Positions 2,845 through 43,239 of a stretch of DNA of 64,000 nt are shown here, in pieces (the first letter of the stretch is position 1; each line of letters starts with the position of its first letter). The position numbers and the translations under genes were made by a program. Origin of the DNA: Tubulanus polymorphus (Eukaryota > Animalia > Nemertea); contig NC_134028.1 of assembly GCF_964204645.1 (NCBI RefSeq), forward strand, positions 9,982,001 through 10,046,000, in the 5' to 3' direction. The notes beneath the pieces were generated by a model, which did no database searches, had not been told where the DNA came from, and saw only the letters and a program-made list of their open reading frames with translations.

Positions 2845-3279
2845 TTAATAATTTATTAATTCTTTTAATAATTTATCTTGTTCTTCAACTGTTATATGAC
2901 CATTTAAACTTATTATATAATCTAGTGTATTCTTTAATTTATTAATTTCTTTTATATTAGTTTTAATTTTTTCTTTATTACTTTTTATATTTAATTTTGA
3001 ACTTATACCAGTTAAAACACTTGAACTTAATCCTAATACACCAATTGATATAGCTAAAGGTGTTAATGGACTGAATATTGCTAGAAATGTTATTACAGAA
3101 CTAATTGTAACCGAACCACTAATAATAAGATAATATATAATTTTACTTTTTAAATATTTTTTCTTTTTTATCTTTAAGTCACTTTCAAATTCTAATATTT
3201 GTTTTTCTAAATATATTTTTAATTTAGTTTTATTTATATCATGAGGAATAATATCAATACTATCAACTTTATCTTCCAT
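2845..3279 (-). CDS. 144-aa two-TM membrane protein with coiled-coil flanks
   Basis: Intact ORF with hydrophobic IIYYLIISGSVTISSVITFLAIF and LAISIGVLGLSSSVL; disrupted homologues at 21970 and 45067. Confidence 0.8.
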   Translation of the reverse strand: MEDKVDSIDIIPHDINKTKLKIYLEKQILEFESDLKIKKKKYLKSKIIYYLIISGSVTISSVITFLAIFSPLTPLAISIGVLGLSSSVLTGISSKLNIKSNKEKIKTNIKEINKLKNTLDYIISLNGHITVEEQDKLLKELINY

Positions 3280-3299
3280 TTATTTAGAAAAAAAAATTA

Positions 3300-3719
3300 C
3301 TAATTAGTAAATTTATACGCTACAAATATAACAATAACAGTTCCACCTAAAATCCATATTATTTCATATTTCTGTTGTTCTTTACTTGGGGTATAATAAT
3401 CTGATAATTTAGGTTTGTATAGATGTAATTTTTCTTTGGTTACTGCGTTATATAAACTCATTGCATCATCAACTGATTGAAAATCTCTATGTGAAATCTT
3501 CTGATCATATAATTCCTTGTTAATATAATCCATATAGTTTTGCCTCTTTTCTCTATATTCTTCTGCTGCTTTATTATATTTCACTAATGCTAAGTTATGC
3601 CTTTTTTGTTCTGTTAATGATCCACTTTTATCAATATGTTTAAATAAATAACCACCACCAGTAAATGCTAAAGCGTTAACAATTGCCGATCCTATAATAG
3701 TTATAACTGCAGAAGCCAT
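3300..3719 (-). CDS. 139-aa membrane protein (N- and C-terminal hydrophobic segments)
   Basis: MASAVITIIGSAIVNALAFTGGGYLF...IIWILGGTVIVIFVAY; homologues at 21511 and 44632. Confidence 0.8.
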   Translation of the reverse strand: MASAVITIIGSAIVNALAFTGGGYLFKHIDKSGSLTEQKRHNLALVKYNKAAEEYREKRQNYMDYINKELYDQKISHRDFQSVDDAMSLYNAVTKEKLHLYKPKLSDYYTPSKEQQKYEIIWILGGTVIVIFVAYKFTN

Positions 3720-3743
3720 TTATTTAGTAAAATAATTATGCAT

Positions 3744-3965
3744 TTATATGGGAGGAATATATTTTTGTTTTTCTAAATAATCAATAGTTAAATTAGATAA
3801 AGTAACTGCTTATGTTAATATTAAAATATCATTTATATCAAATCTATCAACATTAACACTTCCCATTTTGAATACTTTTTTTAATACCATTGAATAACCA
3901 ACAGTTCCAACTGATAATAATGCTCCATTATATAAACCAGTTATTATCCACTTATTATCACTCAT
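3744..3965 (-). pseudogene. 73-aa small hydrophobic protein (internal stop in copy A)
   Basis: Nucleotide match to the intact ORFs 21265-21486 and 44386-44607. Confidence 0.75.
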
Positions 3966-3972
3966 TTATTAA

Positions 3973-4326
3973 TCAAAAAAAATTACTATCTTCAAAATAT
4001 TTAGTTATCTTAGTGATGATTAATTCAACATTTATTTCATTACTACTTTTATGATTATCATATATTTTGGTTAATATGTTTTTAATATCATCTATGATAA
4101 AATCTTCATCTAATTCATAAAATCGTAAAGATTCTCTAATTAAATTAGTAATCTTTTCTACATTTAAAGTTTCTTTATCTATTGTTGTTTCATACTCAAA
4201 TGTTGTTTCATTAGAAAATGCAATATTTTTGATATGTGTAATTACATCATTAATGTTAAATTTCATTTCTTTCTCACGTTTAAAATCAAATCCAAAACAT
4301 ATACTCGGTCCAACAGTTATATTCAT
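3973..4326 (-). CDS. 117-aa hypothetical element protein
   Basis: Intact ORF conserved in copies B (20907) and C (44029); TAAATG start. Confidence 0.75.
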   Translation of the reverse strand: MNITVGPSICFGFDFKREKEMKFNINDVITHIKNIAFSNETTFEYETTIDKETLNVEKITNLIRESLRFYELDEDFIIDDIKNILTKIYDNHKSSNEINVELIITKITKYFEDSNFF

Positions 4327-4341
4327 TTATATAGTGAAAAA

Positions 4342-5079
4342 TTACTCTTTACATCTTATAACTAATTCATATATTACAGGAAAATTATTCAAATCAATTA
4401 AATAACCATTATGATTTCTTATTTCTAATTTAAAATTATTGAAATGTGGAATACAAGGTTTAAAATCACATTCAGCTAAATTATAATTTATTTGCGTTCC
4501 AAATTGTTTAACATTTTTTAAAGGTAAAATATTTAATATACTAGAATTACAAATTGAATCTTTAGTTGCTTCAAATGTTTTTGTTGGGTCAATTAAATTG
4601 CAATAAATATAAAAATGTGTAAAAGGTATTATATTTGAATTACCGTCTACGTTTCCTGTAACAGTTTGTGGTTTAATTCCTAACAGTTTAGCTAAAGGTT
4701 TCCTTTCATCATCTAACTTTATTTTAGTTTTATCAGAACTATCACTTTTTATAAATCTAATTGAAAATTTATCTTCACTTTCAAGTTTTAATTGTGCTTT
4801 CCGATTAATTTCTTGGGCTAATGTTTCTAAATTATATAACCCTGGTTTTAACATTAGATAAAACCATTTATTTTTATTTTTCATATGAATTGCAAAACCT
4901 CTATGTTCGAAAGTTTTATCCGATATATTATAAAAAGAATTACATAAACTTATATTTACTAATTTTAAATCAACACAATTCTTAAATTCTCTATCTAATT
5001 GAACTATTAAATTATGTGATTTATAATTTGTAAGTTTTCTAGAATCAACAAATATTCTGTATTCTTTTAATTCTACCAT
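4342..5079 (-). CDS. Minor capsid protein (penton, single jelly-roll)
   Basis: IFVDSR...LxLVNISLCNSFYNI, PGLYN, FYIYCNLI and C-terminal LEIRNHNGYLIDLNNFPVIYEL are typical of Polinton/virophage pentons. Confidence 0.8.
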   Translation of the reverse strand: MVELKEYRIFVDSRKLTNYKSHNLIVQLDREFKNCVDLKLVNISLCNSFYNISDKTFEHRGFAIHMKNKNKWFYLMLKPGLYNLETLAQEINRKAQLKLESEDKFSIRFIKSDSSDKTKIKLDDERKPLAKLLGIKPQTVTGNVDGNSNIIPFTHFYIYCNLIDPTKTFEATKDSICNSSILNILPLKNVKQFGTQINYNLAECDFKPCIPHFNNFKLEIRNHNGYLIDLNNFPVIYELVIRCKE

Positions 5080-5147
5080 TATTTATAACATACAAAAATT
5101 ACCGCTCATCACTAAAAATTAATTTTAATAAAATTTTTCCTTAATAA

Positions 5148-6450
5148 ATAGATGAGAAGATACCATGCGAAATTTGTGGTGAACTTCTAAGAAAAACTAA
5201 TATGGCTCGACATATGAAAAAACATGATGAAAATTATAAACCCCCTAAACTAAACCGTCCAAAATGTTAAAAAACATTCAGAGAAGTGTAAAATTAATGG
5301 CGCAACGGCTAATGTTGATAGTAATGGAAGTAATTGTAATTCTGTTGAAGTTGAACCTGAAATTATTTGGAAAAGACCTTTCTTATTCTATGATAAGGAT
5401 AATATAAAAGATCATTTCTGTGAGCCTTGTCGAATAAAATATAGCCCTGAAAATATAGAAGATTGGGAGAATCATCAATTTCGTAAAGTACATATAGATA
5501 AAATTTCTAATAAAGTTGAAGCAGAATTCAATGAAAGAAAAAATATTTTATTAGAAAAAATAAAATATGAGAAAACGTTACCAGATAATAAAGAAACAGT
5601 TGAAAAGTTAGAAAAACAATAAAATGAATTAACAAGAAAAACATTTTATTGTAAATATTGTAAATTGATTATTACAACAAGTAATTCAAATCTACATAAT
5701 AGAACAATAAAACATAAAGAAAACGTAAGAAAATACCAAGAGCTTAATGAAGATCTATTACCAATAAATTATAAACGAAAATGTCCACAATGTAGTTATG
5801 CGACCTTAAGGCAAGAAGGTACTGTGTTATCTTGTAATGAATGTGGATGGCAAAAGAATTTATGGGGTGAAGAAAAAACTAGAGATTTTCTCATAGAACC
5901 AAAATTAAATTATCTAGATGAAATTTTTAAAATATTTTCTATAGAAGATCATACACCAGAATATATGCAATGGCTTGAAAAAATGAAAATAATAGAAAAT
6001 AAAAATGGTGAAATAACTAAAAAAGATATTATAAAAACAATTATTCCATCAACATTTAACACAAAACAAAAGAAAATGTATTTATATTTATTTTTTAACG
6101 ATTATTATGAAAAACCTAAATTAACAGAAGAAGATATGGAAAATATAAAAAAAATATTCAAACAAATATTAATGTATCATTTGAAAAATAGAATAACAGA
6201 TTCAATAAATTATGAATTCTTTTTAAATAAGATTGTAAATTATTTAAACATAGATATTATAATTCCATTTGATGAATTAACAAACAAAAAGAAACAAAGA
6301 GAGCGAGATGAAATGTGGTACAAGATAGAACTATATTTAAATGAGAAAAATGAAATGGAAGAACCTAAACAAATTATACAAGAACAATTAAATGAAAATG
6401 AAGAAGCCAATAGTGATTTCGAGTATGATGATATTGATTTTATGTTTTAA
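5148..6450 (+). pseudogene. C2H2 zinc-finger / VLTF3-like late transcription factor fusion (copy A; 5' half disrupted, 3' ORF 5665-6450 intact)
   Basis: CPQC-x12-CNECG zinc ribbon plus C-terminal INYEFFLNKIVNYL...K..ERDEMWYKI resemble poxvirus A2/VLTF3. The start ATG is mutated to ATA relative to copy B. Confidence 0.65.
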
Positions 6451-9400
6451 TAACCATAAGGTAATGTTTTTATACCATCATCTAAAATATGCCTTTTATC
6501 ATCAAATGGATTCAAACTAGTTTTTTCAACTTCATTAATGTACATCTCGTGATCTTCTGATCTTAAACAATTCATTTTGTGTTTCATTACAATTGATTTA
6601 TATAAACACTTTATATAATCTTGAAATTCTATATGTTTATCAACCACATGTTTTGTTATTCCGTTTAACTTTTTAGCTTCACGATCTTTTGTTCTATAAC
6701 TATACATTTTACTTCTTATCCCAACAAATTCAATCATTTCATCACCCCCTAATTCATCTTTAAATTTACCAGGAATCTTTTTATTATCATTGCTAAATAG
6801 TTCATGATCTTTAGGATAATTGCTAAAATCAAAATGATGTTTTAATGTTTTTAAGTCTTTTGTTATGTCGTTTGTCTTGATTTCTAGTAAGTAGGCATCG
6901 GTATTTTTTGGATTAATGGGAACCCAGAATTGAATGTTCCATCATCTGTTGATAAATCATAAACATAGTCAGTTGGGTTATATATTTCAAATAAATCTTT
7001 AACTTCTTCTGTTAACTCATTTTCTACATGGCTTAAATTAAAGCAATTTGGTTTAGATTTAATCAATCCAATATTCGTATTAAATCCTAATGGACTGCAT
7101 AATATATTCAATCCTGATATAGCAACTTTTCCTTTTTGAGCTAAAGATATTGTTTTGCGGTTTTGGAAACTTTTTGAACCATCTGCAGCATAGAATCCAA
7201 TGAAGAACCATTTTCTTAAATTATTTTTTGCATTTAATACATTATCTGGAACTATCTTTTCTTTTGTTGAAGTATTACTTTTAACTATTGCATGAATATA
7301 GAATTCATCATTATATTTTATAGCAAAATCCTTAGGATTATTTACAAGTATTCTATAAACTGCTGTTGATTTCATAACATCCATGATACTAAATGTTTTA
7401 TTTGGATAAACTTCTTCACAGAATTTCTTTATTCTTTCTAATAATTTTAAGTCTTGATTGCATAAATACCAGCAATATTGAGTGCGATTAACATAATTAT
7501 ACACACCTGCTGAACCATCACCCATGAAAAATCCTTTGATAAAATATTCTTTTTCTTCCAATGTTTCGGGTTCTATATTATAAATATTATCAATTATTTC
7601 ATCAAATGACATATGATTCATTCTTTGGAAAAATCTTTTATGTAATAATTTATCTCCAATTTTTATATCAGTTGGTTTTATTTCATCGCCATTTCGTTTA
7701 ATTAAACTATGATCTTCTGTAACATCTACAAATCCTAATTTAGTTCTAACTCTATAGATTTTCTTATTTGTTTTATGTCTAATAATATTCTTTAATTTTT
7801 TCCATCCATTTCTTGTCCAAACATCCATTAATCCATTTATTTGTATTAATTCTTTTTTACCATATGAAATATAACATTCATTTTGTTTTGGAATTATTTC
7901 TGAAATTCTTCTTATCAATATTTTATCATTACATTTTAATAATATTGGGGTGTCAGCTGTTACAGAATCAACGTATAATATTTCAATATGCTTTTCCCCA
8001 AAAAGTGGTTGTAAAACATTATAACAAAAATCATACATTAATAATTTTGATACTTCTAAAACAGTTGAACCAATGAATATAGGTTTATTAAATTTCATTG
8101 ACGTTCTTTTTAATTTAACTGCGGTTAAATAATCTTCAAATCTTTTATTACCTAAATGTCTAGGACTTGATTGTAAATGTCTTAATCTTTCAGAATTATT
8201 TACTAATTCAATATCATTTCTATTTCTAATATTTTCACATGTTTTACCATAAAAACTATTATTCATTAATTTGAAGAAATCTTTTTCAAAATCTGTTTTT
8301 GATATGGTTCTCTGTTGAGTATTGAAATCTATATATTTTTCTAACCACTTCGATTGATTAAATTCAATATATCTATGTACTTTCTTTAATTTCATTCCTT
8401 GTTTTAGATGAAATTTTAACATTCTATAATGAACAATATAATTGTATTTATTATTTTGAGTAAGTATTAATTTTTCTGTAAAAACATGATATTTCGGTTT
8501 TATTTTCTTCTGGTATTCATTTAAATAACTATCATCTACAGTTAAATGTTCTGGGCAATAAGGTAAGTTTCTTGTTTTAAACTTTATATTTTCAGGTTAT
8601 TCTAAATCAACTACAAAGAAATAACCAATTGGTGCTTCATCTTCTAAACTCATAATTGCGCTTTCCCAATTAGTTTTATCATCATTTTCTGTTAATATAA
8701 AATTTTTATATGGTTTAGGTTGCATCATTGCCCAACCATATAAATTATTGGCGTCAATATATAATAATTTATATTCATCATTTGCTTTAAAATATCTATC
8801 TCCCATAACACCACTAATTCCACCTCTAATTGATTTTTCAAATAATAAAACCATATCTGGTTCTTTCAATAAATCTAATTCTACATTTGTATATTTTAAA
8901 CCACATTGCCAGGTTAAACCAGGACTAGAGTAGCAATAACAAGGATCAACATTAAAATGATTCAAATAAACTTCTCTAAATTTTTCAAATATGTCAGCCA
9001 ATATCATAACATCTGATTTTAAATATAAATCAACTAATTCACCATGATTTTTCATCTTAAAATGGCTCCAAATATTTAATGTTCTATTAAACACTTCGTC
9101 TTTCACATACTCCTCTTTTAATTGATCATAAAAATTGATCTTTTAATAATTCTGTTACATTAAAATCATTGTGTGTTTTATAAAATGAATAAGGAATTGC
9201 GCCTTTATATCTCAATAATTTAAAATCTTGGTCATTTGGATAATAATATCGAGTTATTATAAAATAATTATCAACTAAACTTTTTGATAAATTATCTAAT
9301 GAACTTGCTAGAAATCTATAAGAATCTAAAAATCTAATGCAACCAAATTGAAATGAAATATAATTTTCAGATGTTTTAGCTAATAGTTTAAAATCATATT

Positions 9401-13642: not shown

Positions 13643-13712
13643 AGTAATTGGAAGATGTGGGTTTCAGATGAAAGGGCGAGAGGGCGAGACACCACTCATC
13701 ACCACAAGTAAT
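13643..13712 (+). repeat. Left TIR of copy B
   Basis: agtaattggaagatgtgggtttcagat...gagacaccactcatcaccacaag; inverse of 30396-30463. Confidence 0.9.
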
Positions 13713-13727
13713 TTTTTTTCCTAATAA

Positions 13728-16700
13728 ATGGGGGAGAATGAACACCAACCAGAAAATAATAATGTTAATAAAAATCAATATTATTGCACATATTGTAAAA
13801 GATACATCGATACATCTCATAAAACACGACATGAAAAAACTGCAAATCATATAAAAAATGTAATAGATTTTTAAACTCCAGAAAATTCCAATGAAAGAAA
13901 TGAAAGATTAGAAAATATGAATGTGGATGAAATAAAATGTGAAGTTTGTATTGAATTTATAGTAAAAAGGAATTATATTAGACATCTCGAATCACAAAAA
14001 CACCATCAAAATTTGAGTAATAATGTTTTAGGAAAAGATTATTTTGATGATAAACCTCAAAAAGTAAAAAAAAAACCAACTTCAAAAACTAAATCCATTT
14101 CAAATAAACCTTACATGGAAAATGTTAGAAATTATATTGATTCACTAGAAATAAAAGATACAATTGAAATTTTAGAAACATTACATAGTAAAATTGGTCC
14201 TGCAGCTATTATATTTAGATTTTTTAAAGGTACAACAATAGAAGATTATAGTAAATTTAATGAAATAATAGAAAAAATACTAGATTTGATAACAGATGTT
14301 GAATATCCAAAAATTAGAATCTCTGGGAAAGTAAGTTTTATAAAGTCAGAAGAAAAATGAATTATAATATTCAAACACTTTCTGAAGAAATAATTTCAAA
14401 AACACAAATAAAAGAGAAGTTCGAAAAAATATTTAATGAATTTAAACGTCATATTGAAGAAAGGTATTTTGAGGGTTCTGACTTAACATTGAACGAAATT
14501 ATATATTTAGATTTAAATGTTTATAATACAAAAAGGAATAAAACATCAAAAAGTAATAAATTGTTTAAAGATAATTCAAACTTTACAACAGAAAAGGATA
14601 TTAAAGCATCATCTTATATTAAATTACCATTTACAACAAAAGCAGTAATAAATGTTCAAAATGAAGATAATAAATGTTTTCTATGGTCAATTATTAGTTG
14701 CTTACATCCAACACAGGAAAATGTTTGTAGAATAACAGATTATCGGAAATATGAAACATTATATAGAATTGATCAATATCCAGTAACTATAAAAATGATT
14801 CCTAAAATAGAAAAAGTTAATAATTTAAAAATAAATATTAAAGATTATACATTGGAAGCTTTATATTTAACAGAATATTATGATGATGAAAATGCTATAG
14901 ATTTGTTATATTATAAAAAAGATGAAAATGAACATTATATGTGGTTAAAACAAATTGATTTACTCTTTAGAACAGAAAGTGATCATCATCGTAAAAATTT
15001 ATCTATGCAGAAAATGTTTATCTAAATTTATGACTGAGAATACATTATTAAAACATAAAGAATTATGTGATAATAAAGATTTTTGTAAATTAATAATGCC
15101 AACAAAAAAGATTGTAAGTTGAAATTTACTAATCATAAATTTAAGAATATTGTTCCATTTGTAATTTATGGGGATTTCGAATCGTTGAATAAAGAATTAA
15201 CTGATCAAGATAGAAAAGAAATATATAACAAAAAGCAATTATTAAAATCAATGGATAAAGGAAATGAATTAAATGAAGACACAACACAAGACCCACCAAT
15301 TATAAATACAATTAAAAAAGTTCACCAAAGAGCTGCTGCTTATGGAATTTACATTAAATCAAATTATCCTGAATTATATGAAAGTCAATATATTTCTTTT
15401 AGAGGTGAAAATGTAGTTAATGCTTTTTGTAACAAAATGATTGAATTAGAAAGTGATTTTGCAAAATTATTAAACAAAAATAAAAGAATAGTTATGACAA
15501 AAGAAGATGAAATTGATTTTAATTATGCAACTCATTGTTTTTATTGTGAAAAACGTTTTTATTCATTTGATAAAAAAGTTAGAGATCATGATCATTTAAA
15601 TTCATAAATATCGTGGAGCTGCTCATGAAGATTGCAATTTACAAGCTAAGAAAGTTAATTTCGTACCAATATTATTTCATAATTTATCAGGCTATGATAC
15701 CCATCTATTTATAAAACAATTATCGGCAAAATTTGGCGCAATTAATCAAGAAATGGGAGAATATTATGCTATGAATGGTGTAAATGTAAGAAAATATGAT
15801 TTTAAACTATTAGCTAAAACATCTGAAAATTATATTTCATTTCAATTTGGTTGCATTAGATTTTTAGATTCTTATAGATTTCTAGCAAGTTCATTAGATA
15901 ATTTATCAAAAAGTTTAGTTGATAATGATGTTGTTATAACTCGATATTATTATCCAAATGAACAAGATTTTAAATTATTGAGATAGAAAGGTGCAATTCC
16001 TTATTCATTTTATAAAACACACAATGATTTTAATGTAACAGAATTATTAAAAGATCAATTTTATGATCAATTAAAAGAGGAGTATGTGAAAGATGAAGTG
16101 TTTAATGGAACATTAAATATTTGGAACCATTTTAAGATGAAAAATCATGTTGAATTAGTTGATTTATATTTAAAATCAGATGTTATGATATTGGCTGACA
16201 TATTTGAAAAATTTAGAGAAGTTAATTTGAATCATTTCAATGTTGATCCTTGTTATTGTTATTCAAGTCCTTGTTTAACCTGGCAATGTGGTTTAAAATA
16301 TACAAATGTAGAATTGGATTTATTAAAAGAACCGGACATGGTTTTATTATTTGAAAAATCAATTAGAGGTGGAATTAGTGTTATGGGAGATAGATATTTT
16401 AAAGCAAATGGTGAATATAAATTATTATATATTGACGCTAATAATTTACATGGTTGGGCAATGATGCAACCTCAACCATATAAAAATTTTATATTAACAG
16501 AAGTTGAAAATGATGATAAAACTAATTGGGAAAGCGCAATTATGAGTTTAGAAGATGAAGCACCAATTGGTTATTTCTTTGTAGTTGATTTAGAATATCC
16601 TGAAAATATAAAGTTTAAAACAAGAAACTTACCTTATTGCCCAGAACATTTAACTGTAGATGATAGTTATTTAAGTGAATACCAGAAGAAAATAAAACCG

Positions 16701-18749
16701 AAAGATCATGTTTTTACAGAAAAATTAATACTTACTCAAAATAATAAATACAATTATATTGTTCATTATAGAATGTTAAAATTTCATCTAAAACAAAGAA
16801 TGAAATTAAAGAAAGTACATAGATATATTGAATTTAATCAATCGAAGTGGTTAGAAAAATACATAGATTTCAATACTCAACAGAGAACCATATCAAAAAC
16901 AGATTTCGAAAAAGATTTTTTTAAATTAATGAACAATAGTTTTTATGGTAAAACATGTGAAAATATTAGAAATAGAAATGATATTGAATTAGTAAATAAT
17001 TCTGAACGATTAAGGCATTTACAATCAAGCCCTAGACATTTAGGAAATAAAAGATTCGAAGATTATTTAGCAGCAGTTCAATTAAAAAGAACGTCAATGA
17101 AATTTAATAAACCTATATTCATTGGTTCAACTGTTTTAGAAGTATCCAAATTATTAATGTATGATTTTTATTATAATGTTTTACAACCACTTTTTGGGGA
17201 AAAGCATATTGAAATATTATATTTTGATTCTGTAACAGCTGACACCCCAATATTATTAAAATGTAATGATAACATATTGATAAGAAGAATTTCAGAAATA
17301 ATTCCAAAACAAAATGAATGGTGAGATTTCATATGGTGAAATAAAATTAATACAAATAAATGGATAAATGGATGTATGGACAAGAAATGGATGGATAAAA
17401 TTAAAGAATATTATTAGGCATAAAACAAATAAGAAAATCTATAGAGTTAGAACTAAATTAGGGTTCGTTGATGTTACAGAAGATCATAGTTTAATTAAAC
17501 GAAATGGCGATGAAATAAAACCAACTGATATAAAAATTGGAGACGAATTATTACATAAAAGATTTTTCCAAAGAATGAATCATATGTCATTTGATGAAAT
17601 AATTGATAATATTTATAACATAGAACCCGAAACATAAGCAGAAAAAGAATATTTTATCAAAGGATTTGTCATGGGAGATGGTTCAGCAGGTGTGTATAAA
17701 TATGTTTGGGGTAATAAATATTGTTGGTATTTATGCAATCAAGATTTGATATTATTAGAAAGAATAAAGAAATATTGTGAAGAAGTTTATCCAAATAAAA
17801 CATTTAAAATCATGGATGTTATGAAATCATCAGCAGTTTATAGAATACTTGTAAATAATCCAAAAGATTTTGCTATAAAATATAATGATGAATTCTATAT
17901 TCATGCAATAGTGAAAAGTAATACTTCAACAAAAGAAAAGATAGTTCCAGATTATGTATTAAATGCAAAAAATAATTTAAGAAAATGGTTCTTCATTGGA
18001 TTCTATGCAGCAGATGGTGCTAAACAATTTACAAAGGATAAAACGATAACCTTTGCACAGAAAGGAAAAGTTGCTATATCAGGGTTAAATATATTATGTA
18101 ATTCATTAGGCTTCAATATGAATATTGGATTTATTAAATCTAAACCAAATTGTTTTAATCTAAGCCACACAGAAAAAGATTTAACTGAAGAAGTTAAAGA
18201 TTTATTTGAAATACATAACCCATCAGATTATGTTTATGATTTATCAACTGAAGATGGTACAATTAACAGTGGATTTCCATTAATTTGCTTCAATACTGAC
18301 AGTTACATACTAAAAATCAAGACAAATGACATAACGAAAGACTTAAAAACATTAAAACATCATTTTGATTTTAGCAATTATCCCAAAGATCATGAACTAT
18401 TTAGCAATGATAATAAAAAGATTCGTGGTAAGTTTAAAGATGAATTAGGGGGTGATGAAATGATTGAATTTGTTGGGATAAGAAGTAAAATGTATAGTTA
18501 TAGAACAAAAGATCATGAAGCTAAAAAGTTAAAAGGAATAACAAAACATGTGGTTGATAAACATATAGAATTTCAAGATTATATAAAGGTTTATATAAAT
18601 CAATTGTAATGAAACACAAAATGAATTGTTTAAGATCAGAAGATCACGAGATGTACATTAATGAAGTTGGAAAAACTAGTTTGAATCCATTTGATGATAA
18701 AAGGCATATTTTAGATGATGGTATAAAAACATTACCTTATGGTCATTAA
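13728..18749 (+). pseudogene. pPolB: Protein-primed PolB with N-terminal zinc fingers, vOTU-like and EndoVII-like domains, and intein (copy B, disrupted)
   Basis: Same Exo/Pol motifs as copy A; DNKCFLWS...HYMW; CFYC...RDHDH...YRGAAHEDCN; YFD-[intein]-TDS. Confidence 0.95.
17229..18294 (+). mobile_element. Intein with LAGLIDADG homing endonuclease (copy B, disrupted)
   Basis: YFD|SVTADTP...VTEDH...GFVMGDGS...GFYAADG...YVYDLST...FPLICFN|TDS; excision restores YFDTDS. Confidence 0.95.
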
Positions 18750-20062
18750 AACATAAAATCAATATCATCATACTCGAAATCACTATTGGCTTCTTCATTT
18801 TCATTTAATTGTTTAGGTTCTTCTTCCATTTCATTTTCTCATTTAAATAAAGTTCTATCTTGTTCCACATTTCATCTCGCTCTCTTTGTTTCTTTTTGTT
18901 TGTTAATTCATCAAATGGAATTATAATATCTATGTTTAAATAATTTACAATCTTATTTAAAAATAATTCATAATTTATTGAATCTGTTATTCTATTTCCC
19001 AAATGATACATTAATATTTGTTTGAATATTTTTTAAAATATTTTTCATATCTTCTTCTGTTAATTTAGGTTTTTCATAATAATCGTTAAATAATAAATAT
19101 AAATACATTTTCTTTTGTTTTGTGTTAAATGTTGATGGAATAATTGTTTTTATAATATCTTTTTTAGTTATTTCACCATTTTTATTTTCTATTATTTTCA
19201 TTTTTTCAAGCCATTGCATATATTCTGGTGTATGATCTTCTATAGAAAATATTTTAAAAATTTCATCTAGATAATTCAATTTTGGATCTGTGAGAAAATT
19301 TCTAGTTTTTTCTTCACCCAAAAAATTCTTTTGCCATCCACATTCATTACAAAATAACACAGTACCTTCTTGTCTTAAGGTCGCATAACTACATTGTGGA
19401 CATTTTCGTTTATGATTTATTGGTAATAGATCTTAACTAAGCTCTTGGTATTTTCTTACGTTTTCTTTATGTTTTATTGTTCTATTATGTAGATTTGAAT
19501 TACTTGTTGTAATAATCAATTTACAATATTTACAATAATATGTTTTTCTTGTTAATTCATTATATTGTTTTTCTAACTTTTCAACTGTTTCTTTATTATC
19601 TGGTAACGTTTTCTCATATTTTATTTTTTCTAATAAATTATTTTTTCTTTCATTGAATTCAGTTTCAAATTTATTAGAAATTTTATCTATATGTGCTTTA
19701 CGAAATTGATGATTTTCCCAATCTTCTATATTTTCAGGGCTATATTTTACTTGACAAGGCTCACAGATATGATCTTTTATATTATCCTTATCATAGAATA
19801 AGAAAGGTCTTTTCCAAATAACTTCAGGTTCAACTTCAGCAGAATTACTATTACTTTCATTACTATCAACATTAGCCGTTGTGTCGTTAATTTTACACTT
19901 CTCTGAATGTTTTTTAACATAATTTCTTGAGAATAATTTATTACATTTTGGGCAGTTTAGTTTAGGGGGTTTATAATTTTCTTCATGTTTTTTCATATGT
20001 CGAGCCATATAACTTTTTCTTAGAAGTTCACCACAAATTTCGCATGCTATCTTCTCATCCAT
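18746..20062 (-). pseudogene. C2H2 zinc-finger / VLTF3-like fusion (copy B, disrupted)
   Basis: ORF 19433-20062 (four CxxC..H fingers) continues past a GAA>TAA stop into the zinc-ribbon/VLTF3-like part. Its stop overlaps the pPolB stop (TTAA). Confidence 0.65.
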
Positions 20063-20130
20063 TTATTAAGGAAAAATTTTATTAAAATTAATTTTTAGTG
20101 ATGAGCGGTAATTTTTTTATGTTATAAATA
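20063..20130. promoter_or_regulatory. Divergent promoter region between the ZnF-VLTF3 gene and penton
   Basis: T-run then TAAATG on the minus strand; T-run then TAAATAATG on the plus strand; conserved in copy A (5080-5150). Confidence 0.55.
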
Positions 20131-20890
20131 ATGGTAGAATTAAAAGAATACAGAATATTTGTTGATTCTAGAAAACTTACAAATCATAAATCTTATAATT
20201 TACTAGTACAATTAGATAGAGAATTCAAGAATTGTGTTGATTTAAAATTAGTAAATATAAGTTTATGTAATTCTTTTTATAATATATCAGATAAAACTAT
20301 TGAAGATAATACTGTTTTAATTCATATTAGAAATGTAGATAAATGGTTTCATCTAATTTTAAAACCAGGATTATATAATTTAGAAACATTAGCTCAAGAA
20401 AGTAATAGAAGAGCACGGTTGAAAATTAGAAGTGAAGATAAATTTTTAATTAGATTTATAAAAAATGATAGCACAAATAAAATTAAAATAAAGTTACATG
20501 ATGAAAGTCAACATGCATTTATGGTAAAAAAAAACCCATAGCTAAACTGTTAGGAATAGTACCAGATACTGTTACAGGAAACGTAGATGGTAATTCAAAT
20601 ATAATACCTTTTACACACTTTTATATTTATTGCAATTTAATCGAGCCTACAAAAACTTTCGAAGCAACTAAAGATACAATTTGTAATTCTAGTATATTAA
20701 ATATTTTACCATTAAAAATGTTAAACAATTTGGAACGCAAATAACTTATAATTTAGCTGAATGTGATTTTAAACCTTGTATTCCTCAATTTCATAATTTT
20801 GAATTAGAAATAAGAAATCACAATGGATACTTAATTGATTTGAATAACTTTCCTGTAATTTATGAGTTAGTTATAAGATGTAAAGAGTAA
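20131..20890 (+). pseudogene. Minor capsid protein (penton), frameshifted
   Basis: Homologue of 4342-5079; frameshift in the A-run near 20530. Confidence 0.8.
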
Positions 20891-20906
20891 TTTTTTCACT
20901 ATATAA

Positions 20907-21264
20907 ATGAATATAACTGTTGGGCCGAGTATATGTTTTGGGTTTGATTTTAAACATGAGAAAGAAATGAAATTTAACATTAATGATGTAATTACACATA
21001 TCAAAAATATTACATTTTCTAATGAAACAACATTTGAGTATGAAAAAACAATAGATAAAGAAACTTTTAATGTAGAAAAGATTACTAATTTAATTAGAGA
21101 ATCTTTAAGATTTTATGAATTAGATGAAGATTTTATCATCGATGATATTAAAAAAAATAATAATTGAAATATATACAAATGAAACTAGTAATGAAATAAA
21201 TGTTGATTTAATCATCACTAAGATAACTAAATATTTTGATGATAGTAATTTTTTTGATAAATAA
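20907..21264 (+). pseudogene. ~118-aa hypothetical protein, frameshifted
   Basis: Matches the intact ORF 44029-44385. Confidence 0.75.
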
Positions 21265-21486
21265 ATGAGTGATAATAAGTGGATAATGACTGGATTATAT
21301 AATGGCGCATTACTATCAGTTGGAACAGTTGGTTATTCAATGGTATTAAAAAAAGTATTCAAAATGGGAAGTGTTAATGTTGATAGATTTGATATAAATG
21401 ATATCTTAAAATTAACGTTAGCAGTAACTTTATCTAATTTAACTATTGATTATTTAGAAAAACAAAAATATATTCCTCCCATATAA
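21265..21486 (+). CDS. 73-aa small hydrophobic (membrane) protein
   Basis: Intact and conserved in three copies; two hydrophobic stretches. Confidence 0.75.
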   Translation: MSDNKWIMTGLYNGALLSVGTVGYSMVLKKVFKMGSVNVDRFDINDILKLTLAVTLSNLTIDYLEKQKYIPPI

Positions 21487-21510
21487 ATGCGTAATTATTT
21501 TACTAAATAA

Positions 21511-21949
21511 ATGGCTTCTGCAGTTATAACTATTATAGGATCAGCAATTGTTAACGCTTTAGCATTTACTGGTGGTGGATATTTATTTAAACATATTGAT
21601 AAAAATGGATCATTAACAGAACAAAAAAGACTTAAGCATTAGAGAATATAATAAAGCATTAGAGAAATATAATTAAGCAGCAGAAGAATATAGAGAAAAG
21701 AGGCAAAACTATATGGATTATATTAACAAGGAATTATATGATCAGAAGATTTCACATAGAGATTTTCAATCAGTTGATGATGCAATGAGTTTATATAACG
21801 CGGTAACAAATAAAGAAAAATTACATCTACATAAACCTACAATATCAGATTATTATACCCCAAGTAATGAACAGAAGAAATATGAAATGATATGGATTTT
21901 AGGCGGAACTGTTATTGTTATATTTGTAGCATATAGATTTACTAATTAG
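21511..21949 (+). pseudogene. 139-aa membrane protein homologue, disrupted
   Basis: Matches 3300-3719; small local duplication near 21635-21675. Confidence 0.75.
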
Positions 21950-21969
21950 TAATTTTTTTTGCTAAATAA

Positions 21970-22405
21970 ATGGAAGATAAAGTAGTTGATAATATTGATA
22001 TTATTCCTCATGATATAAATAAAACTAAATTAAAAATATATTTAGAAAAACAAATATTAGAATTTGAAAGTGATTAAAAGTTAAAAAGAAAAAATATTTA
22101 AAATCTAAAATTATATATTATTTGATTATAAGTGGTTCGGTTACAATTAGTTCTGTAATAACATTTTTAGCAATATTCAGTCCATTAACACCTTTAGCTA
22201 TATCAATTGGTGTGTTAGGATTAAGTTCAAGTGTTTTAACTGGTATAAGTTCAAAATTGAATATAAAAAGTAATAAAGAAAAATTAAAACTAATATAAAA
22301 GAAATTAATAAATTAAAGAATACACTAGATTATATAATAAGTTTAAATGGTCATATAACAGTTGAAGAACAAGATAAATTATAAAAAGAATTAATAAATT
22401 ATTAA
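21970..22405 (+). pseudogene. 144-aa two-TM protein homologue, disrupted
   Basis: Matches 2845-3279 with stops/frameshifts. Confidence 0.75.
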
Positions 22406-22421
22406 TTTTTTAGTTATATAA

Positions 22422-23747
22422 ATGGTAGATAGTTTTCCAAAAGCTTTCCAATATAATAAATCAATTAAATATAATATTCCAGCAATAGATTTTAATAAAG
22501 ATATTACATATAGAAATGAAGTTTTAAATTCATTAATTGATTTATATATTTATGTTACTGAAAGTAATAATTTTCATGTTAAGATGGAAAATATATTTCA
22601 TGTGTATACAATTAATTTCAAAAATTTAAATGAGGCAAAACAGTGGTTATTAAAATCTAATATGAAGAATTGGCAGAACCAATTAAATTTTGCTGTTTAT
22701 TGCGCAACAAGAGGATGTGGAATTAGTTGGAATGATCATTTAAACAAACCAAGTTTACCATTGATGTTATCACTTTTTAGATTTCATACATATTTTCAAA
22801 TAAAATTAATATTAGATGAATTAGAATGTCCTTTACCAGGTTCAAAATATTTTAAAGAATTGAATAATAATGTTAATTCTTCTAAGTTTTATGAAATATG
22901 TAATGAATTTAATATTAATTCAAATAATGATTTTAGAGCAAAAATTGGAACAATGGGTGGATTAGGAATATTGTATACTAAAGAATTTGGAAAAATAATG
23001 ACAAATTCAGATATAAGAACACTAAATTGGAATGAATTACCAAAATATTATAATAATATACAACAAGAAAACAATAATGGTTGGGTTAGTTTCATTTTAG
23101 AAAATAGTGAAGGTTTTACAAAATCAGGTATACAAAGAATAAATCAATCTATTAGAACTTATTTGATATGTATTCTAGGTGCGCAAGTTGAAACAAGATC
23201 CCCAATAATTGGAAATGATAACACTTCATTTGATGCGCAGAAACAATTCAAAGTATTATTTGAAGATTCCATTCATAATGATAAAAATAGATCGATTCCA
23301 GAAAACATAGTTAGGTACCAAAATTATTTAGATAAATCACATATTAGATTAAATTATTGTATAGGCCCTAATCTATTTATTATTTCTAATGATTTAGTAT
23401 TAAAGATGGGAAATATAATTGGTTATAATAATCTAATTAAAACTGCAACAATAAATAATTCATTTGGGTTAAATGATATAAATAAAAAGATTATCACTGC
23501 TCCAAAATTAATGGAAGGTGAAAAAAATAAAAAACATATTCAATCAACTGAAACTAAAACTAAAAATATTAAATTAAATAATGATTCCAAAATAAAAGAT
23601 TACAATACTACAGAAAATATTAAAACTGATAATATTCAACATGATATAATCAAACTAAATGATGATAATAAATCCCATGAAAATACTAAATTAGCTTTAA
23701 CTTGTATAGGAATTGTTATAGGAGGAATATTATATTTTAAATTTTAA
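22422..23747 (+). CDS. 441-aa conserved element protein with C-terminal TM anchor (function unknown)
   Basis: Intact ORF; WQNQLNFAVYCATxGCGISW and RINQSIRTYLICILGAQ are conserved in all copies. Confidence 0.85.
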   Translation: MVDSFPKAFQYNKSIKYNIPAIDFNKDITYRNEVLNSLIDLYIYVTESNNFHVKMENIFHVYTINFKNLNEAKQWLLKSNMKNWQNQLNFAVYCATRGCGISWNDHLNKPSLPLMLSLFRFHTYFQIKLILDELECPLPGSKYFKELNNNVNSSKFYEICNEFNINSNNDFRAKIGTMGGLGILYTKEFGKIMTNSDIRTLNWNELPKYYNNIQQENNNGWVSFILENSEGFTKSGIQRINQSIRTYLICILGAQVETRSPIIGNDNTSFDAQKQFKVLFEDSIHNDKNRSIPENIVRYQNYLDKSHIRLNYCIGPNLFIISNDLVLKMGNIIGYNNLIKTATINNSFGLNDINKKIITAPKLMEGEKNKKHIQSTETKTKNIKLNNDSKIKDYNTTENIKTDNIQHDIIKLNDDNKSHENTKLALTCIGIVIGGILYFKF

Positions 23748-23763
23748 TTTTTTTATTATATAA

Positions 23764-25209
23764 ATGGATGTAGAAGATTATGAAATGGAAGGCATGGGAA
23801 ATAATGATGATGCCAATACTAACAATGATGATTATATGACTGCTGATACTAATATTGATGATGATAATGATACAACATATAATTCTAATTTAGCAGATAG
23901 TGGTTCTAAAGGCCAATCAACAGATGAATTTGATAGAAGAACTAGATCGAGAATAAATCCTGAAAATGAAAATCAAGGTTTAGTAAAGAAAAATTTAGAA
24001 TATAATGGATATATTTATAATTTCAAACCTATATTTGAAAAATCTGGATATAATATAAATGCCAGAGGCGCCAGACTTTTAGTACAAGAATTAAAATCTT
24101 TAGATGGTGAATATTATTATCGTTTGAAAGATGATTATTATATTGATATCTCTTATAAAAAACAAGACAAAATATTAGCAGAATCAACTTTGCTTAAGTT
24201 AGACCTATCTAGAATTAAAAGAATAAGAAATAGTAATGAAATAGAAGATGTAACACAAGAAGAAATAAATCAAAATGAAAGAGTATTTAAACAAAGAATT
24301 AATGAATTATTTAAAACAATCGATAATAATTTAGAAACAGAAACAACTTCTGAACAGAATATAACTTCCAAAACTAGTAAACTTAAATCAAATAAAGTTC
24401 CAATTGAAAAACTTTTACCAAATGGATTACTTGATGCAACAGATCAAGAATTAGAAGATTTAGATATATTTTCTGATAAAGCAATTAGAGAAATTATTAG
24501 TATAAGACTTGCATCTGATAAAATTGCACATGATAAAAGTATAAGAGATTTTAAAATTAGATTTTTAGAAAAAGAATTAACTAATGCAAATGAAGAAATA
24601 GAACAATTAAAGTCTGATTTAGATCATCAGGTAATTGATGAAATAGAATATAGGCAAAAAGAATTACGTTTAGAAAAAGAAATTGATAATTTAAAAGATA
24701 ATTTAGAAGTACAAAAAGGTGAAAGAGATATATTATTAAAAGAATTTGGTAATAATTTTAAAAGATTAAAAGATGTTTTTAAAAGATATCTAATAAAACC
24801 AGATTCTAAAATATCATTGAAAGATAGAATAAAATTATTATTTAAGTTTGAAGGAATAACAATTCTTTCAATTCTAACAGCAGTAACTATGTTATTTACA
24901 ACAATTGGTTTAGCAATATCAAATACTTTAAAAACTACTCCTACTCCAAATAAACCGGATAAGCCCCCAGGTAATAATTCTATACAAGATAAAGTTAAAG
25001 ATGGTTTAAAGAAATTAGCAAAATATTTATGGGAACTATCTAAAAGATCTGCTGCAGCATTGCCAGGAGTTATTGCATCAATTGTTGGTTTTATATTGAA
25101 ATCTGCAGGAAACATTATTAACTTTGCTGCTGAACATATTATTTTATTTTCAATTACAGTTGTAAGTGCAATTATTTTTGGGTTAGTGAATATGATAAAA
25201 AATAAATAA
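23764..25209 (+). CDS. 481-aa acidic/coiled-coil protein with C-terminal TM helices
   Basis: Intact ORF with a heptad-rich middle and three hydrophobic segments at the C-terminus. Confidence 0.85.
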   Translation: MDVEDYEMEGMGNNDDANTNNDDYMTADTNIDDDNDTTYNSNLADSGSKGQSTDEFDRRTRSRINPENENQGLVKKNLEYNGYIYNFKPIFEKSGYNINARGARLLVQELKSLDGEYYYRLKDDYYIDISYKKQDKILAESTLLKLDLSRIKRIRNSNEIEDVTQEEINQNERVFKQRINELFKTIDNNLETETTSEQNITSKTSKLKSNKVPIEKLLPNGLLDATDQELEDLDIFSDKAIREIISIRLASDKIAHDKSIRDFKIRFLEKELTNANEEIEQLKSDLDHQVIDEIEYRQKELRLEKEIDNLKDNLEVQKGERDILLKEFGNNFKRLKDVFKRYLIKPDSKISLKDRIKLLFKFEGITILSILTAVTMLFTTIGLAISNTLKTTPTPNKPDKPPGNNSIQDKVKDGLKKLAKYLWELSKRSAAALPGVIASIVGFILKSAGNIINFAAEHIILFSITVVSAIIFGLVNMIKNK

Positions 25210-25229: not shown

Positions 25230-26477
25230 ATGAGTGGGATTTATATAAGTCCTTCTAAGATTTCTAGAATATCTAATGCTATTAAAGCAGAAAGATCACA
25301 TCATATAATTACTCATAATCTTTCAAATATTAATCCCGATGAAACTTTGTATGTTAGAATTCCTAGATTAACACAAAATACTTTTTATGTTCCAAATAGT
25401 ATTTATTTATCAGCCGATATAAAAGTAACTGGTAATAATAATAATTATGTTGTTGATAATGTTGGAAGATATTTGATTAAAAAATTAACTATAAAGATTG
25501 GTCCAGAAACAGTTTTCTCATTAGATGATTATAATTTATTTATGCATTATAAAGATTTATGGTTAACTAAAGAAAATAGAAATAATATGATATTTCAGGG
25601 TATTAAATCGGAAAACCATAATAAATTAAGATCTGAAGCCAATAATGCAGTAGTAACTAATGCTGTAGATAATTTGATAAAAAAGATTTATGGAAGCAAA
25701 TATAAAATTCCATTAGACTTTGAATTGATAAATAATAATGCACCTTTATATAAATACGCAATTCAAGAAGATATTATATTTGAGATAACATTTGCTCTTG
25801 TAAATGAAATTGTATAATCTAGCGTTGTTAAAGATATGGGTTATAAATTATCAAATATATGTTTAGAATATGACACAGTAACTAATGAAAATATTGCTAG
25901 CACAATTCAAACTCAATACAATCAAGGATTTTCATTATTATATGATTATATTGATAAATTTAAAACTGTAACTATTAATGCAAATGATGAAATTATTAAT
26001 GAGAATATTAACTTCCCAAGGAGATCTATTAAAGGTATATTAATATTTTTTACCATTGCAACATATACTAATGGCGCAATAAATGTTGATAATTATTATA
26101 ATCCTGAAATAACAAAAGTAGAAATAACTATCGAAGGAATAGCAAATAAAATATTTTGTCAAGGAATGAGAATGATAGATCAGTGTCCAGAAATTAGAAA
26201 ACATTTTATGAATGAAAAAGTGAAATCATCTGAAAATTGTAACATTAATCAAATTGATTATTATACCGGTAATAAATATGCATTATGGTTAGATTTTAGA
26301 ACAACAGAGGATAATTCATTACATGGTTCTGGGAAAAAACTACAGAACACTAAAGATGGAATACAATTATTCATGGCGAAGAAAAGAGGAGACAAAAATT
26401 TCAAAATGCACATTTATATTATATCTGACGCACAATTAAATATTGTAAATTCACAATTAGATAGTATTCAATATTAG
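25230..26477 (+). pseudogene. Major capsid protein (double jelly-roll), one in-frame stop at 25815-25817
   Basis: ~415 aa; NVGRYLIKKLTIKIG resembles the DJR-MCP signature; YKIPLDF, LSNICLEYD, IFFT and ALWLDF beta strands; located next to integrase/ATPase. Confidence 0.8.
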
Positions 26478-26507: not shown

Positions 26508-27635
26508 ATGGGCGGTAAAAAAAACTCCTAATACTAAAGATCAATATTTAAGAAATTTATATTACAACCCTGAGAGTTCGGTTGCTTATTCTTCTACTAA
26601 AAATATATGGCGTCAAGTAAAACAAGATAAATTAGATAAGATAATCCCACAAAATTTAGTTAAATATAAAGATATAAATGAATTTATGTTAGAACAACAA
26701 CATACACAACACATAAAAAAATTGTTAGAAAATATAAAACTCGTAAAACTATAGTAAGTTATGTAGATCAACAGTGGCAAGGAGATTTAATTGATATGAA
26801 AATGTTAAGAAAGATAATGATGATTATTGGTGGTTATTGAATATAATTGATATTTTTAGTCGTTATGTATGGAGCTTCCCACTTTATAGAAAAGATGCTG
26901 TACAAACATCAAATGTTTTAAGAAAATTTCTTTCGGATGATAAACTAAAACCAGAAAAAAATACAATTTGATGATGGAAAAGAATTTGATAATTCACTTG
27001 TTCATGTACTCTTAGGCAATCATAATATTAAATATTTTTCAACAAAATCAAATAAAAAAGCAGCAGTTGTTGAACGATTTAATAGAACATTAAGAACAAG
27101 AATGTGGAAATATTTTACAGCAAATAATACTACTAAATGGATTGATGTTTTACCAAAATTGATAGAAGGATATAATAATTCTTATCATTCTTCTATTGGA
27201 ATGAAACCTATTGATGCTAGAAAACCTGAAAATGCTGAAATTGTTTGGAATAATTTATATGGAGCATTTCTTGTAGATGAATTTGGTGAACCTAAATTTA
27301 AAGTTGGTCAAAATGTTAGAATTTCTAAGTATAAAAAGATATTTGACAAAGGATACGATCGAAATTTTACTAGGGAAATATATAAAATAAAAAAGGTAAT
27401 AACAACAAAACCATATGTCTATAAATTAGAAGATTTAGATGGTGAAGAAGTTGATGGCTACTTTTACGAAGAAGAATTAAGTTTAACTACTGAAAATCTA
27501 GAACAAGAATATAAAATTGAAAAAGTATTAAAAACAAAAACTGTTAAAAGAAAAAAATATTCTTTAGTAAAATGGGTTGGATGGCCAGATAAATTTAATG
27601 AATGGATATTATCAAGTAAAATTAAAAATATATAA
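26508..27635 (+). pseudogene. int: Retroviral-like (rve) integrase with C-terminal chromodomain, frameshifted
   Basis: QQWQGDLIDM, IDIFSRY, IQFDDGKEF, KAAVVERFNRTL, YNNSYHSSIGMKP; chromodomain YKIEKVL...LVKWVGWPDKFNEW. Confidence 0.93.
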
Positions 27636-28244
27636 ATGAATAAGGAATTATTTATATTTGAACCTCATAATATGTTAATTTCTGGTGTAACAAATTGTGG
27701 AAAAACTTATTTTATATTAAATTTATTAGAAACTGTTTATAAAAACTATTTTGATAATATAGTATTATTTTGTCCAACATATGAATTTAATCAAACTTAT
27801 GACAGAAATATTACTAGAAATAATAAATTTATTATATTAGATCCTAAAACAGTAAAAGAAAATTTAGATAATTGTATAAAAATAGCAATTGATATTTATA
27901 AAGGATCAAATACATTATTTATCATAGATGATTGCGCAAATTTACATGATTCAAAAGTTAGAGAAAGTGAGTTATGTTATTTAGCTTTCTCTGGAAGACA
28001 TTTTGGGATAACAACATGGGTTTTAAATCAAAAATATAATTCAATTGTTAAAGACTTTAGGGAGAATATAAGATTTTTAGTATTATTCTACAATAAAGAT
28101 AGAAAATCGATGAAAAATGCGCTTGAGGAAAATGATGTTATTCCACATGATTTACATTATGAATATATGGATAAATTGAAAAATAATAAAAGATCAAAAT
28201 TACTATTTAGATTACAACACCCATTTAAATATGAATTTATTTAA
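27636..28244 (+). CDS. A32/FtsK-like DNA packaging ATPase
   Basis: Walker A GVTNCGKT, Walker B LFIIDD, arginine finger GRH, TWVLNQ. Confidence 0.93.
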   Translation: MNKELFIFEPHNMLISGVTNCGKTYFILNLLETVYKNYFDNIVLFCPTYEFNQTYDRNITRNNKFIILDPKTVKENLDNCIKIAIDIYKGSNTLFIIDDCANLHDSKVRESELCYLAFSGRHFGITTWVLNQKYNSIVKDFRENIRFLVLFYNKDRKSMKNALEENDVIPHDLHYEYMDKLKNNKRSKLLFRLQHPFKYEFI

Positions 28245-29868: not shown

Positions 29869-30081
29869 TTATAAAAATACTTTAAATTCTCGTGTACTAA
29901 CATTACAGTTGCTTAAATTCGCTGATACTTTCTCTCCATATTTAGTTTTTATCTTTTCTAATTTCAATATTTTATATTCAATTTCTTTTGTAACATCAAC
30001 TAACTTTTTTATTTCGAATTGTTTTTTTGCTGGTTTTATTCTGTTATTTATTGTTGCTAAGAATGCTTTTCTATCTCCCAT
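29869..30081 (-). pseudogene. Small TKYG-motif protein (possible OB-fold), 3' decayed
   Basis: TAAATG start; KKL...YKI...TKYGEKV...FKVFL resembles the ORF at 42887-43239. Confidence 0.55.
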
Positions 30082-30395
30082 TTATAACGAAAACAAATTA
30101 CTTGTGGTGATGAGTGGGGATTACTTCCCCCTGTATATAACAAACACGCTATTAACCGTTCTCACCCAAGCCTCACAGCATCTATTTATCCGGGCACTGT
30201 TGACACGCAATCACTGTACTACTACAGTAATAGCACACGCGTTAATAACCGTTCTCAGTAGAGACTCACTGTATCGATCTATCCACGCGCAGATGTTGTT
30301 ACGCGCACTCACTGTATATGTGTATCACAGAGCAATCGTCCGTTCTCACTAGAGCCTAGCTGTGATGAGTGGTGTCCCATACTCAATTGAATTAT

Positions 30396-42886: not shown

Positions 42887-43239
42887 ATGGAGAGTAAACA
42901 AACACACAGTGAGAAAAACAATTTATTTCTAGATAGAATTAAAGATATAACACATGGAAATCAGTAGATTATAAATTTAAGAAGTTAAAAGAATTAATAA
43001 TCCATAAGAAATATCTAATTACAAATATTGATACAGTTACTAACAAATATGGAGATAAATTAGTTATACACTTAGAATATGAAGGATTAAAAGGAAATAC
43101 ATATAAATTCAGAACATATTTACCAGATAGATTTCATAGATTATCAAGTGAAGATCTAGAAGAATTATGTTCTGGTGATTTCTATTTCGTATACAAAGGT
43201 AAGAATGAAAAAGGGCACCATGAAATAGATTTCGAATAA
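42887..43239 (+). pseudogene. Small TKYG/YLPxR-motif protein (possible OB-fold), one frameshift
   Basis: Manual translation: MESKQ...FLDRIKDI / YKFKKLKELIIHKKYLITNIDTVTNKYGDKLVIHLE...FRTYLPDRF...FVYKG...EIDFE; TAAATG start. Confidence 0.65.

Follow-up and report, generated by a model that had tools for sequence, protein, structure and literature searches.

The window (the whole 64,000-nt stretch of DNA analysed) contains several decayed copies of a 16-kb Polinton, surrounded by more GC-rich host DNA. Two of these copies hold a broken gene of the VLTF3 family extended by four zinc fingers, and most genes of the element start at TAAATG behind one of two upstream layouts that resemble poxvirus promoters. 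The best explanation, to which we give a probability of about 0.45, is a virophage-like Polinton transcribed by the polymerase of a helper nucleocytovirus, with the element's own VLTF3 as an adaptor. The VLTF3 gene alone is not new, and the novelty implied for it in a previous inspection of the letters alone (hereafter the sequence-only reading) was too high: VLTF3 is reported in coral polintoviruses (PMC11131425, citing Krupovic and Koonin 2016) and in about 30% of two PLV clusters (10.64898/2026.06.19.733378), and it figures in the keys to illustrations in an adintovirus paper (PMC8502044) and in a study of Phaeocystis PLVs (10.1101/2022.07.28.501842). As in the coral polintoviruses, MELD viruses and PLVs (PMC11131425, PMC8502044, 10.64898/2026.06.19.733378), the gene is a patchy accessory of a small preplasmivirus; unlike here, the descriptions given in the parts of those sources compared mention no finger fusion or promoters. 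The stronger result is the start-signal context of the gene.

A finger-VLTF3 gene in decayed Polinton copies

Copies A (1-11586) and B (13643 to about 30120) are inverted relative to each other and 92% identical across 11.7 kb, while copy C (about 40730-50900) and fragment D (about 51080-54800) are less closely related to both. The ends of copy B are joined by a 41-nt inverted match: the inner part of its right terminal repeat (30077..30117, minus strand), which leads directly into a TAAATG start, is 93% identical over 41 nt to the left end. The element has the Polinton/Maverick gene set, namely a protein-primed PolB (pPolB), a retroviral-type integrase, a packaging ATPase and a major capsid protein. 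Pfam scans of element pieces placed DNA_pol_B_2 (E 3.9e-10; the pPolB scans used pieces of copy A, 6447-11501, minus strand) and Pox_A32 (E 3.6e-13) above the cut-off, and rve_3 (E 0.0085) and Chromo (E 4e-5) in the integrase and Capsid_N (E 9e-4) in the capsid protein below it. In copy B, a broken pPolB gene (13728..18749, plus strand) lies tail to tail with the VLTF3 gene. The plus strand then carries a block of seven genes (20131..25209; a likely minor capsid protein, five unnamed genes and one with a weak SLATT lead), the major capsid protein gene with one internal stop (25230..26477), and a broken integrase with a chromodomain followed by an A32-type packaging ATPase (26508..28244). The Pfam scan of 24 element pieces listed no adenain-type maturation protease, and no VLTF1 (G8), VLTF2 (A1) or multisubunit RNA polymerase, although small divergent factors could escape it; none of the unassigned ORFs of the element is big enough for the two large RNA polymerase subunits.

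Other features of the locus were also recorded. The pPolB genes of copies A, B and C contain an intein with a LAGLIDADG domain (6884-8596, minus strand; 15987-18609 and 40808-42623, plus strand) inside the polymerase motif before TDS; a close pPolB relative in contig L003 lacks it. Inteins were noted earlier in Polinton pPolB (PMC11161782). In copy B, three 97-nt repeats separate the ATPase gene from the gene that follows it (28246-28556). Past its capsid gene, copy C has an extra broken gene (49908-50707, plus strand) that contains short repeats and a single zinc finger and lies behind an A-core start signal. In fragment D an endonuclease VII-like gene of 260 aa is intact (53993-54775, minus strand; PHROG 1035, E 1.5e-13), with an A-core start signal like that of the VLTF3 gene. 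An extra pPolB fragment about 70% identical to those of copies A and B (30391-30936, plus strand) starts at a terminal-repeat piece immediately after copy B, so several Polinton insertions are clustered at the locus. Two host-side pieces, 34734-35906 and 59948-61144, are presumably a Penelope-type retroelement and a Harbinger-type transposase, as judged from their appearance.

The sequence-only reading had proposed one gene of about 435 aa with four fingers and a VLTF3-like part. Both copies of the gene in the window are broken, and the 435-aa product is a composite of the two. Copy A (5148..6450, plus strand) lacks a start codon at the position matching the start in copy B, changes frame near 5267 and has a stop at 5620-5622. 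Downstream of it, a single open frame (5623-6450) contains both CPQC..CNECG and SINYEFFLNKIVNYL...RDEMWYKI. This frame encodes a C4 zinc ribbon (CPQC...CNEC; 5782..5844, plus strand), seen as three short strands in the predicted model, and the helical VLTF3 domain (5890..6354, plus strand), followed only by an acidic tail of about 30 aa. Copy B (18746..20062, minus strand) has a stop at 19433-19435, a frame change near 19038 and indels near 18813-18837; its four fingers lie within the N-terminal 209 aa.

A homolog search of 1.84 billion protein representatives (clusters at 50% identity) returned three proteins. P0001 (697 aa) and P0002 (446 aa) are 41-58% and 27-47% identical, respectively, to the window copies over the matched stretches; in both, a single ORF encodes the ribbon and helical domain as well as four fingers, and their alignment runs from the first finger to the C-terminal helix. 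Since these intact natural relatives align along the whole length, the pieces in the window belong to one gene, and that part of the proposal stands even with no intact copy in the window. In L003, the genes for P0001 and for an intact pPolB of 1,336 aa are arranged tail to tail, as in the window. P0003 (281 aa) has the ribbon and helical domain and no extra fingers; the size of its contig, 12,994 bases, as for that of the capsid relative P0030, hints, and no more, that it is also Polinton-derived. The ribbon motif is present in copy A, P0001, P0002 and P0003, its four cysteines being invariant in all four aligned sequences. The window gene, although broken, is a real member of the VLTF3 family with a conserved four-finger extension.

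Other searches gave no relatives. A word-index search with a 275-aa piece retained 0 of 509 candidates, and one with the alignment, among longer proteins, 0 of 6,566. VLTF3, capsid, ATPase and pPolB queries of viral contigs found no true relative; INPHARED phages gave no match, nor did PHROGs for three pieces of the VLTF3 gene, and PDB sequences gave none below E 0.18. Contigs L001 and L002 were set aside, their match being a giant-virus TFIIB-like ORF (E 2e-4 on a pattern-selected set) whose relationship is unproven. In DNA contigs of run X1, the summed depth, which is not a copy number, was about 30,000 over the VLTF3 gene and 116,000-240,000 over the capsid block.

No VLTF3 gene was found in copies C and D. 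In copy C its slot is occupied by a different, broken small gene (42887..43239, plus strand) that shares its A-core start signal. The Atlas clusters closest to this small gene are unnamed arthropod proteins (0.95), and there is a weak lead to phi29-SSB (0.86); with mostly arthropod clusters nearest, the host is probably an animal. The finger-VLTF3 gene is an accessory that can be exchanged and that some family members do without. Between copies A and B, synonymous differences affect 7 of 186 sites in the VLTF3 gene and 80 of 579 in the flanking genes (p 6e-5). The flanking genes have a dS of 0.12-0.25 and a dN/dS of 0.16-0.38; for the VLTF3 gene the dS is 0.03-0.05 and the dN/dS about 0.9, a ratio that rests on 7 synonymous and 30 non-synonymous differences. 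These values fit a VLTF3 cassette that may have been shared recently between two diverged active lineages and have later decayed in place.

Patchy presence raises the question of whether the gene was captured as cargo, its role being minor or unrelated, and TAAATG then being a lineage-wide start word (a translation context, or the polyadenylation signal of the upstream gene) unrelated to VLTF3. Beyond the replaced slot in copy C, this would agree with the A/B dN/dS, with the likeness of ATAAA to a poly(A) signal and with the contrast between three VLTF3 clusters and the 922 relatives of the major capsid protein, counts that come from different libraries (clusters at 50% identity from 1.84 billion proteins, and a 90% library). 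We nevertheless consider it improbable. ORFs that remain intact and keep every finger, the ribbon and the helical motifs are still found at 27-50% identity, which implies long selection, and the few differences behind the A/B ratio fit decay after insertion. Further, TAAATG heads genes that have no upstream gene on the same strand (pPolB, VLTF3 and the terminal gene), and AATAAA occurred within 80 nt in 0 of 6 gene ends without a same-strand gene downstream.

Fold of the VLTF3 part and its four fingers

The VLTF3 homology put forward in the sequence-only reading was borne out, and membership of the family is supported by profile, structure and language-model features. Pfam Pox_VLTF3 (PF04947) passed its cut-off of 25 bits on the C-terminal piece 6070-6354 (29.1 bits, E 9.7e-7, profile positions 84-162 of 168) and scored 25.7 bits on 6130-6345. 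It was not listed for longer pieces or for the intact P0001-P0003, so routine annotation would overlook the gene. The predicted model of the ribbon plus helical domain (5770-6354; pLDDT 82.9) matched poxvirus and giant-virus VLTF3 models best in Foldseek, the targets being predicted, not solved, structures. The top match was cowpox VLTF3 (E 2.1e-6, TM 0.61, about 200 columns), and ranks 3 and 4 were entomopoxvirus VLTF3s, positions that may reflect the short length of the poxvirus models; many giant-virus VLTF3s were also matched. VLTF3 accounted for the majority of the named rows among the first 40, and 11 rows reached E 0.001, including one named exonuclease and three unnamed proteins. Identity to canonical VLTF3 in the structural alignments was 10-22%, and Foldseek against the PDB gave nothing at E 0.001 or better. 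Atlas language-model features placed 27 of 30 matches in Pox_VLTF3 clusters (best score 0.96), with a recognition value below the threshold of the tool; one of these clusters is mostly Preplasmiviricota.

Among 48,161 solved chains, cyclin-fold chains took ranks 1-13 (best Z 7.1, rmsd 4.0, 94 residues aligned), and a second structural comparison with a cyclin repeat gave Z 8.2 (rmsd 2.8, 88 aligned). The top ranks comprised initiation-complex chains, Orc and cyclins at Z 6-8, the best matches being chains of Pol II and Pol III initiation complexes, which we take to be TFIIB and Brf1. Values of Z 6-8 may arise by chance for helical proteins; the likeness to a cyclin repeat is argued from the consistency of the ranks, not from Z alone. 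Residues 35-195 of the model align to about 90 residues of one cyclin repeat. The TFIIB-like cyclin fold named in the sequence-only reading is supported for one repeat only, at a middling Z of 7-8; the second repeat of TFIIB is absent. The model suggests that VLTF3 may be a one-repeat TFIIB-like factor: with TFIIB and Brf1 it would share a zinc ribbon, a linker and a cyclin-like helical repeat (Z 6-8), and it differs from them in having one repeat, 6-14% identity and no sequence-level match.

Compared with poxvirus A2 and other nucleocytovirus VLTF3s (PF04947), the protein shares the C4 zinc ribbon and, after it, the helical domain, but adds the four N-terminal fingers and the acidic tail. Its gene also differs from theirs in lying on a 16-kb Polinton in which RNA polymerase, VLTF1 and VLTF2 were not detected. 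VLTF3 is used as a marker of Nucleocytoviricota, with homologs said not to be detectable outside the phylum (PMC11253617); divergent Polinton copies therefore matter for marker-based surveys.

Copy B, P0001 and P0002 have four fingers each, as had been expected for the window gene, yet these are not uniformly C2H2-like. One is a classical C2H2 finger, one is C2HC (C2H2 in P0002) and two are widely spaced with an H-x5-H end; the last scores as zf-U1. About 40-55 aa separate fingers 3 and 4 from the fingers next to them, and a TGEKP-type linker was found in none of the seven sequences examined. Because of this spacing, the lack of the linker and the C2HC type of finger 2 in copy B and P0001, the fingers are of mixed types and do not form a Krueppel DNA-reading array; sequence-specific DNA reading by them is possible but unsupported. 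Similar fingers head the element's own pPolB. The model of the finger region (pLDDT 67.6) is loose and matched generic finger proteins only, none at E 0.001, which gives no support to the idea of a fused VLTF2.

The extra fingers, together with the strong divergence from canonical VLTF3 (the low structural identity, and no match, at a probability of 0.4%, in a profile comparison with the VLTF3 of G001, a viral bin described below), could be read as those of a decoy. The protein would occupy the late-factor site of a helper virus, or sequester VLTF2 or TBP, and so reduce the helper's late transcription, from which the element or the host would benefit; virophage-type elements are reported to harm their helpers (PMC6723459). 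This has little likelihood, as the ribbon and the helical domain are both kept in three lineages and the element itself seems to rely on that late-type machinery for its own genes.

TAAATG start signals across the element

To count start signals, 26 presumptive gene starts were chosen from ORF tables before the upstream DNA was viewed. TAAATG was present at 21 of these starts, which come from element copies that are not independent, against 132 of 1,778 ATGs in element DNA (7.4%). It occurred in at least one copy of all 14 listed gene families; the starts that differ include those of the integrase of copy D and the minor-capsid genes of copies A and B. In copy B, 14 of 15 starts had it, a count that is partly circular since the starts of broken genes were assigned by eye. 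A mechanical count including fragments and antisense frames gave 20 of 48, compared with 19 of 191 in 13 AT-rich control loci.

Two upstream layouts were distinguished by eye on 18 genes. In the ten T-run genes of copy B, T was found at positions -13 to -8 from TAAAT in 10, 10, 9, 9, 10 and 10 of the ten, respectively, and the run ends 6-7 nt upstream. Six of the seven block genes, the major capsid protein gene and pPolB have this layout; the signal of pPolB in copy B (13709..13731, plus strand) adjoins the left terminal repeat. An A-rich core at -14 to -12 is found instead in eight genes of B, C and D, among them VLTF3, integrase and ATPase. The signal of the VLTF3 gene (20060..20086, minus strand) consists of TTTAATAAAA, a spacer and TAAATG, and P0001 and P0002 are also preceded by the A-core layout. 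T at -10 was present in 9 of the 10 T-run genes and in 3 of the 8 A-core genes. The window contains 11 occurrences of the T-run pattern and four of the A-core pattern; neither count was reached in any of 100 shuffles. A role of the T run as a splice acceptor was rejected, since AG follows in only one of ten genes, as was one as a terminator, since a T run also precedes pPolB at the element end.

Vaccinia late promoters are described as having TAAATG over the start codon and T at -10, with intermediate promoters A-richer upstream and A2L classed as an intermediate gene (PMC11980589). The T-run genes show these late features in TAAATG over the start codon, the upstream T run and the T at -10, and the two classes of start signal resemble, by analogy, the late and intermediate promoters of poxviruses (PMC11980589, PMC5294985), the A-richer class including the VLTF3 gene. 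Unlike in vaccinia, pPolB falls in the T-run class and the A-core class always ends in TAAATG; here the classes are known as sequence. Searches of openly available papers turned up no report of poxvirus-type promoters in Polintons.

In more distant Polinton relatives, starts were mostly TAAAATG-like (L005 and L006), and a GC-rich one (L007) had neither form. In all three cases the Polinton capsid genes lie on short contigs that were assigned to prokaryote genome bins, probably by contamination. Seventy-five control loci, namely those of 127 with at least 5 kb and five ORFs, most of them selected for one pattern match, had a median of 6% TAAATG starts. Four of the 75 had about 70%. These four (L081, L057, L016 and L085, bin G001) appear to be one lineage, in which 13 of 19 ORFs start at TAAATG, often after a T run. 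G001 encodes an RNA polymerase and a VLTF3 of its own, and seems to be a giant virus outside the poxviruses. With such a lineage starting about 70% of its ORFs at TAAATG, the helper of the Polinton need not be a poxvirus, and the signal would be a nucleocytovirus-type initiator.

Copies C and D keep the same starts, so the start signal is independent of the VLTF3 gene in cis. This bears on the possibility that the element is autonomous, with a nuclear VLTF3 that mimics TFIIB and brings host RNA polymerase II to TAAAT initiators for late genes. Beta- and gammaherpesviruses, by analogy, use a viral TBP mimic in recruiting host Pol II. The zinc ribbon and cyclin-like repeat, with their best solved matches in Pol II and Pol III initiation complexes, would suit such a mimic, and the nucleus is reached, since the element integrates. 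Nucleocytoviruses lacking an RNA polymerase are reported to retain VLTF3, Ariadnaviruses keeping it with VLTF2 (10.64898/2026.08.29.747986), so VLTF3 can apparently work without a viral polymerase of the same genome. On the other hand, family members without VLTF3 use the same starts, VLTF3 itself lies behind TAAATG, and an initiator overlapping the ATG would, judging from poxvirus biology, leave almost no leader unless the polymerase slips. Recruitment of host Pol II is, on these grounds, unlikely.

A helper virus as the proposed source of the polymerase

The preferred reading, a virophage-like Polinton dependent on a helper, would run as follows. The RNA polymerase of a co-infecting nucleocytovirus would transcribe the element, with TAAATG as the transcription initiator, and the element's VLTF3 would be a TFIIB-like adaptor steering this polymerase to the element's promoters. 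The zinc ribbon may dock on the polymerase while the helical repeat contacts promoter DNA or TBP, and the extra fingers could add nucleic-acid or protein contacts favouring the element's own template. A-core genes (VLTF3, integrase and ATPase) would be read first and T-run genes (the capsid block and pPolB) afterwards, as in the intermediate and late classes of poxviruses. Vaccinia A2L is reported to be required for transcription from late promoters (PMC11980589). Both pPolB and VLTF3 start at TAAATG themselves, and no gene offers a clearly different entry promoter. The use of a helper's late machinery, already suggested in the sequence-only reading, gains support from the TAAATG and T-run start signals; the retention of VLTF3 by viruses without an RNA polymerase counts against it.

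There are precedents for such dependence. Mavirus has its helper's late promoter before all genes (PMC6723459). Like Mavirus and Sputnik (PMC6723459), the window element combines pPolB and an integrase with a single late-type motif that precedes almost every gene, an arrangement suggestive of helper transcription. It differs from them in its Polinton-type capsid and polymerase, in a motif that is poxvirus-like where theirs is that of CroV or mimivirus, and in having its own late factor; it is known from DNA, and its helper is putative. Polinton-like viruses linked to entomopoxviruses are described (PMC11296320) and set a precedent for a polinton-like element tied to a poxvirus; the accessible main text of that paper, by contrast, does not contain 'promoter', 'VLTF' or 'transcription factor'.

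A broader proposal, tentative and on balance doubtful, is that an animal Polinton lineage consists of virophage-like parasites of poxvirus-like or related nucleocytoviruses, with all genes placed behind a helper initiator in an intermediate-then-late cascade and, in some members, a finger-extended VLTF3 that would seize the late polymerase. How Polinton genes are expressed in animals, and whether a helper is needed, is a question on which the start signals bear. A shared promoter tied Mavirus to its giant-virus host, and the start signals of the element offer a comparable handle on a Polinton that is probably of animal origin; as poxvirus-like signals spread genome-wide, they make helper dependence directly testable. 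If true, the virophage-like reading would identify the way in which Polintons of animals come to be expressed and awakened.
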